Positions 3,299 to 7,101 of a stretch of DNA of 10,553 bases are shown one piece after another. The position numbers and the translations under genes are program-made. Where the stretch lies: the NCBI GenBank assembly GCA_965648905.1, contig CBFGIT010000053.1, positions 1 through 10,553 on the forward strand, in the 5' to 3' direction. Under the pieces are notes generated by a model that made no database searches, was not told where the DNA came from, and worked only from the letters and a program-made list of their open reading frames with translations. The number at the start of each line of letters is the position of its first letter. The stretch's first letter is position 1. Origin of the DNA: a candidate division WOR-3 bacterium. Lineage in GTDB: Bacteria; Hydrothermota; Tepidihabitantia; Tepidihabitantales; Tepidihabitantaceae.

Positions 3299-3310
3299 GT
3301 ACTACCTTCC

Positions 3311-3862
3311 TCAGCCAAGGTTCGTGCCCCGGGCATCAGGCTTTACCGATCCGGCCGGCAGGTTCAGACGCTGGGTCAGCGACGCGGCGACGTCGGCCCA
3401 AACCGGCGAACCGCGGTAAATGACCTGCCCGGCGGAGTCCAACAGCACGACATGGGGCACAAACCGCACATCCCAGTCCTGCTGGGTTCGTCGCGTGACA
3501 TCGTACACCACCGTCGCCCCGGCAATACCCTCTCCGTAGGCCTTGCGGACTTCAGGTTCGGGATCGCCGAGGTTCACGAACACGGTCGTGATTTCCATCA
3601 AGCTGAACGTGGCGGCGACCGACGGCAGCTCCTTGCTGGCGGAGGCCGAGAACGGGCACTTGGTGTCAGCGAAAGTCAGGAGCAGGCCCTTCTTGCCGCT
3701 GTATTCCGCCAGCGTCCGCGTCACTCCCTGCAGGTCCGGCAATCGTGTCCCGGTTAATAGCGCCGGTGTGTCCTGCAGCCTGGCTGCGGCCTTGGGCTGG
3801 GAGCCGCAGGCGGTGAGCAGTATGAGCGCGGACAGCGTGTACGCGATTGGCAGGATTCTCAT
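3311..3862 (-). CDS. redoxin (AhpC/TSA- or TlpA-like thioredoxin fold) lipoprotein; may extend to 3302 via Sec
   Basis: Lipobox LLTA-C, LPDLQGVTRTLAEYSGKKGLLLTF, a single-Cys active site (TKCPFS), cis-Pro region FVPHVVLLD, IYRG. GGAGGAG RBS. Confidence 0.85.
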   Translation of the reverse strand: MRILPIAYTLSALILLTACGSQPKAAARLQDTPALLTGTRLPDLQGVTRTLAEYSGKKGLLLTFADTKCPFSASASKELPSVAATFSLMEITTVFVNLGDPEPEVRKAYGEGIAGATVVYDVTRRTQQDWDVRFVPHVVLLDSAGQVIYRGSPVWADVAASLTQRLNLPAGSVKPDARGTNLG

Positions 3863-3930
3863 CAGGACTCCTCCACGATGCGATGCATCGTGGGAAACAG
3901 GCAGATGGCAATCGATGTGTCCATGGCCAT
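3862..3930 (-). pseudogene. acr3: 22-aa mini-ORF, a remnant of an acr3 N-terminal region
   Basis: MAMDTSIAICLFPTMHRIVEES* versus Acr3 [16 protein letters not shown] 3871-3914 matches 2971-3014 at 33/44 without gaps. Its TGA overlaps the redoxin ATG (TGATG). Confidence 0.7.
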
Positions 3931-3936
3931 GTCGGT

Positions 3937-4614
3937 TCAGCTTCCCTTCCCGTCCGGCGTTATGGTTCCGTCGACGAGCTTCAGGATTCGCTTCGCCCGC
4001 TCGGCGGCGCGCATGTCGTGGGTTACCATCACGACGGTCCGGCCTTCCCCGTTAATCGCTTCAAGGAAGTCGATTATTTGCCCGCTCGTTTCCGGGTCGA
4101 GGTTGCCGGTCGGTTCGTCCGCCAGCACGACTGCCGGGTCGTTCGCCAGCATGCGGGCCAGCGCAACCCGCTGCTGCTGGCCGACGCTCAGCTCTGACGG
4201 CTTGTGGTCCAAACGGTCGGCGAGGCCCAGGCGTGTCAGCAAAGACGAGGCGCGGTCCTGCTGAGTGCGCCCGTCGATGCCGGCCAGCAGCAGCGGGACT
4301 TGCACGTTCTCCAAGGCGGTGAGGTACGGGACAAGGTTGAAGGTCTGGAACACGAACCCGATCTTCTTCCGGCGCAACTCGGCACGTTTGTCGGTACTCA
4401 TATCGTACAGCGACTGGTCGTCCACAAGGACGCGACCCGATGCCGGGGAGAGCATCCCGCCCAGCGTGAGCAGGAGCGTGCTCTTGCCGCTGCCGCTGGG
4501 GCCGACCACTGATATGAAGTCGCCGTTCTGTACTTCCAGCGTGGCGTTATCGAGCGCCTTGACGGTGCGGCCCCGATGAGTGTAGGTTTTGCTGACGCAC
4601 TGCAGTGCAAGCAT
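3937..4614 (-). CDS. ABC transporter ATP-binding protein, LolD/MacB/FtsE type
   Basis: Walker A GPSGSGKS, IGFVFQTFNL, signature variant LSVGQQQRV, Walker B LADEPTGNLD, H-loop VTHD. Confidence 0.95.
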   Translation of the reverse strand: MLALQCVSKTYTHRGRTVKALDNATLEVQNGDFISVVGPSGSGKSTLLLTLGGMLSPASGRVLVDDQSLYDMSTDKRAELRRKKIGFVFQTFNLVPYLTALENVQVPLLLAGIDGRTQQDRASSLLTRLGLADRLDHKPSELSVGQQQRVALARMLANDPAVVLADEPTGNLDPETSGQIIDFLEAINGEGRTVVMVTHDMRAAERAKRILKLVDGTITPDGKGS

Positions 4615-4617
4615 GAG

Positions 4618-5835
4618 CTAGTTCTCCTGCAGTGCCGTGCTGGGGTCGAGCCGGGCCGCACGACGGGCCGGGAAGAAGCTGGCGAGAAGCGATATCACGA
4701 TGGATATGCCCAGCGCCCAGAGCAGCAGTATCGGCATCGGCAGCACCGGCACGTTGGCCAGTCTCGGGCCGATGGCAACCGCCAGCACCGTGCCCACGAT
4801 ATAGCCGCTCACGCCGCCGACCAGACCGAGCAGCAGCGCCTTGAGCAGGAACATGCTGAGCACGGCGCGCGAGCCCGCGCCCAGCGCCATCAGCGTGCCG
4901 ATTTCCCGCCGCCGCTCGAACACGTTGGCGTACATGTAGTTGGCGATGGTCGCGCCACCGATGAGGGCGATTATTGCGATGAAGATGAGGGACAGGCTCG
5001 CCATCATCTTGTTGGTCTTTATCTGGGTGTCAACGACTTGGGTGATGGTGACGACCTTGGCTTCGGGGAGCAGCTTGTTTATCTTCTGCACCAAGCCAGT
5101 GTTGATCGCATTGCAGCAACCGACGACCTCAATCGCGTTCACGACCGCGCCCTTGCCGGTCAGCTTCTGCACCGTGTGCAGGTGGCCGAAGATGCGCGAG
5201 TCATCAACCGTGCCGGTCGGGGGCAGCACCGCCGTGACGGCAAAGCTCTGGCCCAGCATCGCGAGCTTGTCCCCTTCATTCAGGTTGGCGGCGACGGCGA
5301 CATCGTTCCCGATCAGGACCTCGTCCTGCTTCAGGTCCTCAATGACCCGCTTGCGGGCGAGGCTTCCCCTGGCGGCTTCCGGCGAGAGCGGCGATTTGAC
5401 GACGGTCCCGCAGTTCTCGGGCCGGGCAAATATGCCAGCGCCCTGCCACGCCGCCTTGGCCTTGAACTCGTTCATGGGCAGAATGCCGGTGAGCGTGAAG
5501 CTGCGTCCCGCCACTTCGACCGGTGAGGACAGCCGCGGGGACAGGTTGTCCAACCCTTGGATGTCCGAGAGCATCAAGCGCTCAACGTACTCTTCCGGGA
5601 AGTCGTCTTCCTGCATGTCCGCGCTGTAGTAGTCCTGCAGCGTCGCCGACTTGGGTAGAATCAGGATGTTCGCGCCCAGGGCATCCAGCTCCCGGGCCAC
5701 GGCCTTCTGCGAGTAGTACGCTACGTTCCTGATGGCGACAATCGCGGTTATGCCGAGGAATATGGCGATAAAGCTCGTCGCCAACTGGTTCTTGCGCTCG
5801 AATATCTCGCGCCAGACTATCGTTCTGAGTTTCAC
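4618..5835 (-). CDS. ABC transporter permease, MacB/FtsX-like (type VII)
   Basis: One N-terminal TM, a large extracytoplasmic domain and three C-terminal TMs. Motifs LGANILILP, ERRREIGTLMALGA, PARRAARLDP. GTG start. Confidence 0.92.
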   Translation of the reverse strand: MKLRTIVWREIFERKNQLATSFIAIFLGITAIVAIRNVAYYSQKAVARELDALGANILILPKSATLQDYYSADMQEDDFPEEYVERLMLSDIQGLDNLSPRLSSPVEVAGRSFTLTGILPMNEFKAKAAWQGAGIFARPENCGTVVKSPLSPEAARGSLARKRVIEDLKQDEVLIGNDVAVAANLNEGDKLAMLGQSFAVTAVLPPTGTVDDSRIFGHLHTVQKLTGKGAVVNAIEVVGCCNAINTGLVQKINKLLPEAKVVTITQVVDTQIKTNKMMASLSLIFIAIIALIGGATIANYMYANVFERRREIGTLMALGAGSRAVLSMFLLKALLLGLVGGVSGYIVGTVLAVAIGPRLANVPVLPMPILLLWALGISIVISLLASFFPARRAARLDPSTALQEN

Positions 5836-5847
5836 GGGTGTTCTTCC

Positions 5848-6822
5848 TTACTTCCCTGTCGGCCCGCAGCCGCTCGGCGCGCAGCCGCCGCTGCCGCAGC
5901 CGCCGGATGTTGCTGCCGTCAACGTGGCGATCATCACATTCTTGTCGGTTGCGCCGGCATACTTCGCGAGGACCGCGCCGGGAGGAGCGAGGAACGCGGT
6001 GACAGCTTCGGTCGTCCCGGGGTCGATCTGGAGTTGCGCGAGGAACTTGGATTCCGCGGCGTCGGTCGGGTCAAGGCTCACAACCTCCGTGAACTTCGCA
6101 TAGCGAGCATCGGCCTTGAACGCGTTGACGCCCTTGAGTGCCGCCTCGTTGGAGGTCGTTGATGCGTTCTGCACGCAGACAAAGACCAACTTGCCTTCCT
6201 GCAAAGCCTTCAGGGATTTCTCCAAGCCCGGGCTGACGAATGCGCCGGAGAGCTGCTCCTCAGTGACCTTGCCCGGGAACCCGCCGGTAACCGCCCCGCT
6301 GGGACCAACCACCAAGGCCAGCGGCATCGGGGCCCGGTCGACCTGGAACTTGGCGACGATGTCCTTCTCGGCGGCGTCGGCTACATTCACGGTGATGGAA
6401 TGGGCCTTGAGCTTTGCCGCCGCGCCTGCGAAGACCTTCTTCATCGCCTGGGTCTCGTCATCGTCGTTGCGATAGAAGAGGACCAGCAGGTACTTGCCGG
6501 CCGCGGCCGCCCGGTCGAGGGCGGCAATGCCGGTCACTTTCTGCGCCAGCTTCGCCGGCGGTGCCGGCGACTCCGCGGATTCGGATGCAGTGCTGGCTGA
6601 TACCGCCTGGTCGGGGACCGATTGCAGTGCCGCTGAATCGACTGGCGCCGGTTGGACCTGCGCAACCGTGCCTGTATCAACGGGCTTTGCCGCCTCGGTT
6701 CGGGCCGGCCCTTGCTGACCGCAGCCGACCAGCATCAGTATCAGTGATGCTGGCACCACCATAGCCGCCAGCGATGCGCGCAGACCGGGATTGTTACGCC
6801 GAGAGAGTAGTCGGGTTACCAT
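5848..6822 (-). CDS. putative lipoprotein with two thioredoxin-like repeats and a Cys/Gly C-terminal tail
   Basis: Start moved to the ATG at 6822 (AAGGAG RBS). Basic N-terminus, hydrophobic stretch, lipobox LVG-C, Ala/Pro/Ser linker, two similar alpha/beta repeats, tail GGCGSGGCAPSGCG. The fold assignment is an inference. Confidence 0.75.
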   Translation of the reverse strand: MVTRLLSRRNNPGLRASLAAMVVPASLILMLVGCGQQGPARTEAAKPVDTGTVAQVQPAPVDSAALQSVPDQAVSASTASESAESPAPPAKLAQKVTGIAALDRAAAAGKYLLVLFYRNDDDETQAMKKVFAGAAAKLKAHSITVNVADAAEKDIVAKFQVDRAPMPLALVVGPSGAVTGGFPGKVTEEQLSGAFVSPGLEKSLKALQEGKLVFVCVQNASTTSNEAALKGVNAFKADARYAKFTEVVSLDPTDAAESKFLAQLQIDPGTTEAVTAFLAPPGAVLAKYAGATDKNVMIATLTAATSGGCGSGGCAPSGCGPTGK

Positions 6823-6870
6823 GTTGCTCCTTCGAATTGGCCGGATTGCCATTGCTTCTTCACTGAGTCT

Positions 6871-7101
6871 CTATCCACCGCAGCAGCCGGTGCCGCCTCC
6901 AGGGCTGCCGCAGCAGCCGCCGGGTTGTGGGACACTGCTACGCGAGCCGCCCAGGATGTTCACGGTCGTCATCGTGCGGCGAACGCGGCCTGAACCGCAG
7001 GCCGGGCACTTCACTTTCAGCCCGCGTTCATACTCGGCAACGCTCACCTGAACGTCGAACATCATCAGGCATTTCTCACATCGGTAGTCATAGGTAGGCA
7101 T
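6871..7101 (-). CDS. FmdB-family zinc-ribbon protein with a Cys-Cys tail
   Basis: MPTYDYRCEKC...CPACGS pattern and tail GGCCGSPGGGTGCCGG. AAGGAG RBS immediately after the arsA stop. Confidence 0.9.
   Translation of the reverse strand: MPTYDYRCEKCLMMFDVQVSVAEYERGLKVKCPACGSGRVRRTMTTVNILGGSRSSVPQPGGCCGSPGGGTGCCGG

Follow-up and report, generated by a model that had tools for sequence, protein, structure and literature searches.

The window analyzed here, a 10,553-nucleotide stretch of DNA from a candidate division WOR-3 bacterium of the Tepidihabitantaceae (contig CBFGIT010000053.1), is a complete 10.5-kb contig of a 3.0-Mb genome that is 99.6% complete. It carries an arsenic resistance (ars) island in which genes for a lipoprotein and an ATP-binding cassette (ABC) system sit between arsA and acr3. 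Read along the minus strand, the order is a DsrE2-like gene, arsR, a fused arsD-AhpD, arsA, an FmdB-family Zn-ribbon, a lipoprotein (Lipo), a permease, an ABC ATPase, a redoxin lipoprotein, acr3, and a universal-stress-protein (Usp) gene. Gaps from arsA through the ATPase gene measure 3–18 nt, with 74 nt ahead of the redoxin and 103 nt ahead of acr3; no convincing terminator was found between window genes, terminator-like structures being fewer than expected from shuffled sequence.

The original prediction, made from the DNA letters alone, took the five genes from Zn-ribbon to redoxin as one cysteine-rich extracytoplasmic module. Open reading frames (ORFs), Pfam, and NCBIfam bear out five co-oriented minus-strand genes between arsA and acr3, and the features that had attracted attention are all present: CC pairs in the Zn-ribbon, a three-Cys tail on Lipo, a CC in the outside domain of the permease, and both lipoboxes. 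Comparison with other genomes redraws the boundaries, however: the conserved unit is three genes (Lipo, permease, and ATPase), not five.

A conserved three-gene core beside ars genes

Two sets of loci underlie this conclusion. Scanning GTDB species genomes with a profile yielded 173 relatives for the Lipo-seeded set; 80 loci were retained, and four were added from relatives of the window's genome, for 85 in total. The permease-seeded set drew on at least 545 relatives, with 80 loci kept, 48 of them not shared with the Lipo-seeded set. Neighbors were called by tblastn with the window proteins and with checked neighbor representatives, and the counts reported rest on tblastn. The permease lies next to Lipo in 76 of the 85 Lipo-seeded loci (several of those without it are contig ends or contain fragmented genes), and the full triad is present in 68, with the ATPase gene adjoining the permease in 68/76 loci of this set and 47/48 of the permease-seeded one. 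Viewed from the permease, 44 independent loci have enough upstream DNA to judge, and in 43 of them Lipo is the gene immediately upstream. The Zn-ribbon, by contrast, recurs in two of 85 other loci (L089 and L028, both copies with the same CC...CC tail) and the window-type redoxin in none, ruling out the five-gene module.

Linkage of the core to ars genes is solid. Of the 76 loci with Lipo and permease, 66 have an ars-family gene no more than 5 kb away, 48 have one within that distance that is arsenic-specific and not ArsR, and 47 have ArsR within 1 kb. The 48 independent permease-seeded loci, counted over up to 6 kb of flank on each side, tell the same story: 41 have some ars gene, 37 an arsenic-specific one, and 31 ArsR. 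The possibility that homologs occur mostly without ars genes, which would have undone the original proposal, is therefore not what is seen for the core; it does hold for generic FmdB Zn-ribbons, where an ars gene (ArsC) is nearby in just one of 22 loci. The arrangement is not a matter of chance, since the loci in which the core has ars neighbors number well over 100 and come from many phyla.

Curated models were used to check the neighbor identities. Representatives reach their equivalog models for Acr3 (TIGR00832, 440 bits against a cut-off of 283) and ArsG (NF040495, 232 against 200), as well as subfamily models for ArsM (NF008823, 279 bits), ArsE-type thioredoxin (TIGR00412, 103 bits), and the ArsF family (NF040494, 90 bits); the ArsC representative scores 152 bits with TIGR02691, under the cut-off of 174. 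By a heuristic check, a CxC or vicinal CC is present in 26 of the 29 flanking ArsRs that could be recovered.

Several relatives illustrate how tightly the core is bound to arsenite efflux. At four loci (L088, L089, L090, and L006) acr3 begins 3–5 nt after the ATPase gene. The closest relative, L089, has the order DsrE-arsR-arsD-arsA-Zn-Lipo-permease-ATPase-acr3, an identical operon minus the redoxin, and two others have the minimal strings arsR-Lipo-permease-ATPase-acr3 or Lipo-permease-ATPase-acr3. In Adhaeretor mobilis HG15A2, a planctomycete in culture, a single intergenic region separates arsR-arsC-acr3 from Lipo-permease-ATPase, and the two sets run away from it in opposite directions. 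Carriers span Planctomycetota, Acidobacteriota, Desulfobacterota-type lineages, Krumholzibacteriia, Verrucomicrobiota, and others, including many uncultured sediment lineages. Within the window's own phylum Lipo occurs in five of 272 genomes, and the only congeneric genome besides the window's lacks it, a patchiness typical of accessory island genes.

Such linkage bears on whether the core need concern arsenic at all. It could instead be an ArsR/SmtB-controlled system for Sb, Cd, Hg, or persulfide, or a peptide exporter, that hitch-hikes in ars islands, and some hints point that way: models of the ArsR family also match BigR, CmtR, and TsoR weakly, a DsrE2-like gene precedes the window arsR, and the FmdB tail may resemble peptide precursors of the kind covered by the TIGR02605 description. 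We regard this explanation as highly improbable, given that arsenic-specific linkage appears in two independently seeded sets and many phyla, that no mer, cad, or czc family is present among 29 Pfam-scanned clusters drawn from the 45 most widespread neighbor clusters, and that 83 of the 85 loci lack the Zn-ribbon. The core very probably serves the handling of arsenic or antimony.

Which arsenic species is involved can be approached through the company the core keeps. Within 10 kb of the 76 loci, Acr3, a pump for inorganic As(III), is the commonest arsenic-specific neighbor (34), followed by ArsE-type thioredoxin (26), ArsC (19), ArsA (6), and ArsD (4). ArsM, ArsP, ArsF, and ArsG occur in 15 loci each, which, together with HrtB appearing among the fold matches of the permease, could suggest an HrtBA-like machine that clears the outer leaflet of membrane-partitioning trivalent organoarsenicals such as methylarsenite and aromatic arsenicals. 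The prominence of Acr3, directly coupled to the core in the window's relatives, makes such an extractor very unlikely; moreover, three-thiol sites of the kind described below suit As(III), whereas two thiols suffice for methylarsenite, and the window has neither arsM nor arsP.

An unnamed partner protein with a cysteine tail

The first gene of the core, Lipo (5848..6852, minus strand; an alternative start, M11, lies at 6822), encodes a protein with a signal peptidase II lipobox (L-V-G-C) and a weak match to PF13848. In the AlphaFold2 model the lipobox is followed by a disordered tether of about 70 residues and then by a core (residues 108–319) of two redox-inactive thioredoxin-like domains without CxxC, modeled at a predicted local distance difference test (pLDDT) of about 97. 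The last 18 residues contain three Cys in a Gly/Pro-rich tail of the form C-x4-C-x4-C, and an internal Cys, C226, is invariant in the family alignment.

By sequence, Lipo is a member of an unnamed family. A word-indexed search returned 257 matches, and the best 120 of these carry no functional name, being unnamed, labeled "hypothetical protein," or given automatic labels ("predicted small lipoprotein YifL"). In a profile search of 1.84 billion representatives, 904 clusters at 50% identity were recovered, the ESM Atlas returned unnamed Planctomycetota clusters alone (score 0.93), and the Lipo profile has no PDB sequence match at E≤1.

The tail is the family's signature. At least three Cys are present in the tails of 80 of 86 Lipo-family ORFs, which, alongside the permease cysteines described below, places the residues singled out in the original prediction among the family's most conserved features. 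The pattern C-x3-5-C-x3-5-C occurs in 69/86, vicinal CC in 25/86, and CC-x4-C, spaced exactly as in the ArsD site of the window, in 14/86. Homology to ArsD is nonetheless not supported: PF06953, the ArsD domain, has no match on Lipo, and hhalign of the Lipo family with the window ArsD aligns 11 tail residues, the short motif alone, at a weak 12.7% probability.

Lipo genes are frequently multiplied, with at least two tandem copies in 41 of 81 loci and a maximum of four. Locus L009 (6415-9761) has four tandem Lipo genes preceding one permease, and L017 has two separate Lipo clusters, one of them with arsR-arsD-arsA after the ATPase gene; at these loci proximal and distal paralogs differ in their tails (CC-x4-C-x4-C versus C-x4-C-x4-C). 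The Lipo proteins at L043 and L060 have five-Cys tails built of CGSCGP repeats and, with that at L078, may be stand-alone binders.

The fold of the Lipo core raises the prospect of a repair function. Its top Foldseek matches are abb'xa' and bb' fragments of protein disulfide isomerase (PDI), QSOX, and an archaeal PDO, and its likeness to the substrate-binding bb' domains of PDI, without CxxC, would suit a machine in which the ABC pair, in the manner of FtsEX with EnvC or PcsB, drives Lipo to strip As(III) from envelope dithiol proteins, for example those of cytochrome c maturation or the Dsb reductive pathways. DsbD-type membrane proteins (8/76 loci) and ArsE-type thioredoxins (26/76) within 10 kb, and the TlpA-like redoxin added in the window, are in keeping with this idea. 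The TM-scores, though, are 0.2–0.3 with a root-mean-square deviation of about 10 Å, so that the domain type alone is held in common and not the arrangement; the likeness is generic to tandem thioredoxin domains, no client protein is conserved nearby, and the redoxin is missing from 85/85 other loci. Dedicated repair accordingly appears quite unlikely.

A type VII permease with a periplasmic cysteine triad

The second gene (4618..5835, minus strand) encodes a permease of 405 residues that has an FtsX domain (PF02687, 72 bits) and a MacB-like periplasmic domain (PF12704, 31 bits), both above cut-off, and no nucleotide-binding domain (NBD), the ATPase being encoded separately. Its AlphaFold2 model has helices at residues 15–53, 264–307, 322–360, and 369–394, the first two separated by a beta-rich domain. 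Foldseek matches are led by LolE (9rlc_E, E 5e-19), MacB (5gko_A, 1.9e-18), and HrtB (7w7a_B, 3e-13), with YbbP, BceB, and FtsX (8ymc) further down, and a profile comparison with PDB sequences identifies MacB (5nik_J, E 3e-22). With its FtsX helices, extracytoplasmic domain, fold, and cognate ATPase, the permease is a type VII ABC protein.

Three periplasmic cysteines set it apart. In the window a G-C-C motif occupies residues 239–241 of the periplasmic domain; across 52 sequences C240 and C241 are present in 52/52 and C142 in 51/52, and all three are found in 69/69 permease-seeded loci. None of five other FtsX paralogs encoded by the same genome has any of the three, position 142 falling in a gap and positions 240–241 being K/R and D/K/G/P. 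Near-invariant in the family and absent from these paralogs, the triad, a vicinal CC with one further Cys on a flexible conserved loop, thus marks a permease subfamily. Near the cytoplasmic C terminus, residue 399 (window 4639-4641) is Cys, within L-D-P-C, in 40/52 and 46/69 sequences, and Ser in the window.

The third gene, 3 nt downstream of the permease gene, encodes an ABC ATPase of LolD/MacB-NBD type (3937..4614, minus strand; PF00005, 122 bits) in whose translation the Walker A, signature, Walker B, and H-loop motifs are intact. Its best NCBIfam matches are LolD, DarD, the MacB NBD, and FtsE, every one under the equivalog cut-off (TIGR02211, for instance, gives 225 bits, under a cut-off of 308). 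Indeed, none of the three core proteins attains the cut-off of any NCBIfam model, and no curated ars model of NCBIfam or Pfam matches Lipo, permease, or ATPase in scans in which the flanking genes do match, bearing out the suggestion that the core stands outside the canonical ars genes.

Relation to known systems

MacB offers an architectural parallel. Both permeases insert a large periplasmic domain between transmembrane helices 1 and 2 of an FtsX-type four-helix membrane domain, both are served by a LolD/MacB-type ATPase, the fold matches include 5gko and 5nik, and the principle of mechanotransmission is presumably common to the two. There are also differences. In the ars core the ATPase is a separate gene rather than N-terminally fused; no MacA adaptor or TolC is conserved across loci or found in the window, where, as originally stated, none of the 13 ORFs scanned matches an HlyD/MacA or TolC family; and where MacB has its second periplasmic subdomain, the ars permease has a poorly modeled conserved loop containing C142. 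The periplasmic Cys triad is specific to the ars-linked subfamily, as judged against the five same-genome paralogs.

The Lol system provides the best fold matches and, with them, another account of the core. LolCDE and LolF act on lipid-anchored periplasmic proteins encoded elsewhere, whereas the ars core encodes its tethered protein immediately upstream, and the permease and ATPase might be a dedicated sorter that extracts the Cys-tailed Lipo, in LolCDE/LolF fashion, from the inner membrane, so that it reaches the outer membrane or surface and acts there as a stoichiometric arsenic sponge. The LolE chains that head the fold matches come from LolCDE-lipoprotein complexes, the window Lipo has a lipobox, the single permease gene resembles homodimeric LolF, and tandem Lipo copies would suit a consumable binder. 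Yet a lipobox-like motif is found within the first 70 residues of just 17 of 86 Lipo-family ORFs, most Planctomycetota copies having a plain signal or anchor, and no LolA or LolB is encoded nearby. Scores against Lol models are far below cut-off: 49 bits against 362 for the LolC/E equivalog TIGR02212, 40 against 439 for LolE (PRK11146), and 27 against 473 for LolC (PRK10814). Neither the ars context nor the Cys triads have a counterpart in Lol, and sorting leaves the invariant triad of the permease unexplained. We consider a sorter unlikely.

Neither MacA nor TolC is needed by FtsEX, which powers a partner protein in the periplasm, or by HrtBA, which clears a toxic ligand out of the outer leaflet; among the fold matches the two are represented by 8ymc and 7w7a. 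The ars core differs from both in that it has no hydrolase-activator partner and heme is not implicated, and FtsX models score the permease at 21–23 bits against cut-offs of 225–255.

A further parallel is cytoplasmic. Like ArsD and ArsA, the core pairs a thioredoxin-fold protein bearing three Cys with an ATPase-powered component that has a three-Cys site of its own, and the C(C)-x4-C-G-P of the Lipo tail mirrors the CC-x4-C-G-P of the window ArsD. Unlike that pair, the core is extracytoplasmic, its motor is an ABC ATPase working through a membrane permease, and its As(III) binding is putative.

Possible handling of arsenite outside the cytoplasm

To our knowledge, bacterial arsenic resistance has been described almost wholly as cytoplasmic chemistry and inner-membrane efflux, with the fate of periplasmic arsenite outside the textbook scheme. 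Three thiolates hold As(III) in ArsR, ArsD, and ArsA, often as a vicinal CC with a third Cys, and by analogy with these sites both Cys clusters of the core, the Lipo tail and the permease triad, can be read as candidate As(III) sites. On balance, we lean toward viewing the three-gene core as an ArsR-linked type VII (MacB/FtsX-type) ABC system that deals with extracytoplasmic As(III). That it acts on the extracytoplasmic side through its Cys triads seems probable.

How it might do so, whether by capture, relay, or repair, we can only infer, and one relay-and-release scheme can be sketched as possible rather than probable. The tethered Lipo tail, with its three Cys, would scavenge periplasmic As(III) that either has been pumped out by Acr3 or is bound to envelope dithiol proteins, and would swap it with the three-Cys site of the permease. 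ATP-driven motion of the periplasmic domain, through mechanotransmission, would then distort the permease site, so that the metalloid is let go or moved outward and the sites are made ready to bind again. In essence, the system would be an outside-membrane counterpart of the cytoplasmic hand-off from ArsD to ArsA. Whether it amounts to the first extracytoplasmic ATP-powered pathway of arsenic detoxification, a periplasmic mirror of ArsD-ArsA downstream of Acr3, is a tentative proposition to which we give somewhat less than even credence.

A number of observations weigh against As(III) handling of this kind. On the chemical side, As(OH)3 is small and neutral, and the rationale for active periplasmic handling is weak; on the regulatory side, ArsR-family regulators sense other soft metals and sulfur species as well. 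In the stretches of DNA covered, no ars gene is seen at 10 of 76 and seven of 48 loci, many, although not all, of them short contigs. Nor is an outer-membrane partner or adaptor conserved: an HlyD cluster occurs in four loci, and at L027, the one inspected, the gene right after HlyD encodes a second FtsX permease. Lipo tails are also less uniform than the scheme would wish, as six of 86 family ORFs have fewer than three tail Cys, three Lipo proteins (L068, L076, and L077) have no tail Cys at all though the permease triad is kept, and several close relatives end in poly-Gly, which indicates that the tail is not strictly required. At least three long-flank loci (L043, L060, and L078; 10 kb flank) have Lipo without the permease. 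As for the permease, C142 belongs to a conserved motif on a stretch of about 40 residues (125–165) that AlphaFold models at pLDDT 30–45, the remainder being at about 70–89; closeness of C142 to C240 and C241 is hypothetical, and the periplasmic cysteines may instead form structural disulfides.

The type of machine is known; its arsenic context, its partner family, and its outside-facing Cys triads are new. Full-text literature searches found no description of the Lipo-permease-ATPase module. Closest to one comes a 2015 survey (PMC4435449), in which five ABC transporters of unspecified kind are tallied for ars operons with Acr3; its supplements might list them. PMC6205960 contains none of the terms searched for, and PMC8477397 reports an unrelated FtsX-like gene that is arsenite-induced in a rice pathogen.

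A conserved, unnamed three-gene set beside acr3 and arsR points to a missing periplasmic step. If the proposal is correct, the core would add new members to the ars genes and be the first ABC system in bacteria devoted to arsenic; it would also bring metalloid handling to the jobs of the type VII ABC family and supply metagenome annotators with three new arsenic marker genes. With a cultured carrier in Adhaeretor mobilis HG15A2 and sites predicted to the single residue, the question is directly testable.

Zn-ribbon and redoxin as local additions

The two genes that drop out of the conserved unit are of interest in their own right. The FmdB-family Zn-ribbon (6871..7101, minus strand; PF09723, 46 bits; TIGR02605, 50 bits) is a cytoplasmic protein whose Gly/Cys tail has two CC pairs. 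This CC...CC tail is common to the three ars-embedded Zn-ribbons and to three deltaproteobacterial copies (L096, L097, and L099) with GGCCGSPGSCGSPGGCC-type tails, of which the L096 copy adjoins an ArsC gene. The notion that the Zn-ribbon is an exported peptide precursor for the ABC pair was rejected as a general reading, on account of the 83/85 loci that lack it.

The redoxin lipoprotein (3311..3862, minus strand) is TlpA/ResA-like (PF08534, 32 bits; PDB 3hdc, E 4.7e-6) with the lipobox L-T-A-C. Its presence had been rightly noted, with one correction: the active-site motif is C-P-F-S, a monothiol CxxS in place of the CxxC active site of TlpA/ResA oxidoreductases. By tblastn, CxxS relatives at 46–52% identity occur in four of 43 other genomes of the family, all in genus g14. 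Three of five loci with redoxin relatives (L115–L119) place them beside ArsM, Acr3, or ArsE-type thioredoxin; in four of the five the open frames run to about 325–331 aa, and the relative at L116 is a 301-aa two-domain protein with the motif H-C-P-H-S. The g14 relatives seem to constitute a second ars-associated thiol protein, likewise unnamed and extracytoplasmic. The cytoplasmic Zn-ribbon and the extracytoplasmic CxxS redoxin thus look like lineage-specific, local thiol-chemistry additions to ars islands and not parts of the machine.

The flanking ars genes and other neighbors

A strong sigma-70-like promoter sequence, TTGACA-16-TATTAT (9943..9970, minus strand), agrees with the consensus at 11/12 positions and lies at the start of arsR. 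Just after it an imperfect palindrome (9914-9943, minus strand) is a candidate ArsR operator; both assignments are predictions from consensus matching. ArsR itself (9534..9977, minus strand; NF033788, 82 bits) has a CVC motif and a C-terminal CC, and its true start is probably M16 at 9932. No RNA data set carrying the window is listed, the 11 listed runs each sharing a small part of its words.

The next gene (8908..9534, minus strand) fuses an ArsD metallochaperone with a CC-x4-C site (PF06953, 118 bits; NF033727, 107 bits) to a domain of the AhpD/carboxymuconolactone-decarboxylase type (PF02627, 40 bits). The latter forms the C-terminal half, has its own CxxC (C-E-P-C), and finds its nearest NCBIfam models in ArsM-AhpD selenoprotein fusions; the fusion is kept in L089, at 82% identity over residues 1–195. 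The ArsA ATPase (7113..8984, minus strand) scores 847 bits with TIGR04291 against a cut-off of 650 and probably starts at 8891. At the other side of the core, the Acr3 arsenite efflux permease (1981..3207, minus strand; TIGR00832, 371 bits) is 408 aa long, and its residues 17–388 span the 327-position model, giving about 45 extra internal residues.

Directly upstream of arsR lies a sulfur-carrier-like gene of the DsrE2/DrsE_2 family (10053-10535, minus strand), which has 96% identity in L089 and may tie arsenic to sulfur or persulfide chemistry, for example through thioarsenicals. The tandem Usp gene (1119-1988, minus strand) has an 8-nt overlap with the acr3 stop; a Usp next to acr3 in L015 is 50% identical to it, and L088 has a Usp of 72% identity some 11 kb away from the module. 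At the contig end a MntA/HepT type VII toxin-antitoxin pair (327-943, plus strand), its genes overlapping by 4 nt, fits a mobile or island setting.

Further afield, neighbors that recur beside the core include a C_GCAxxG_C_C/split-Soret cytochrome-like protein (L052, 5245-6114), a DGC-domain protein (L025, 5565-6260), and a DUF2703 protein (L042, 12689-13195), and at L074 a thioredoxin_3-CdhD fusion (7741-9165) lies near the module.

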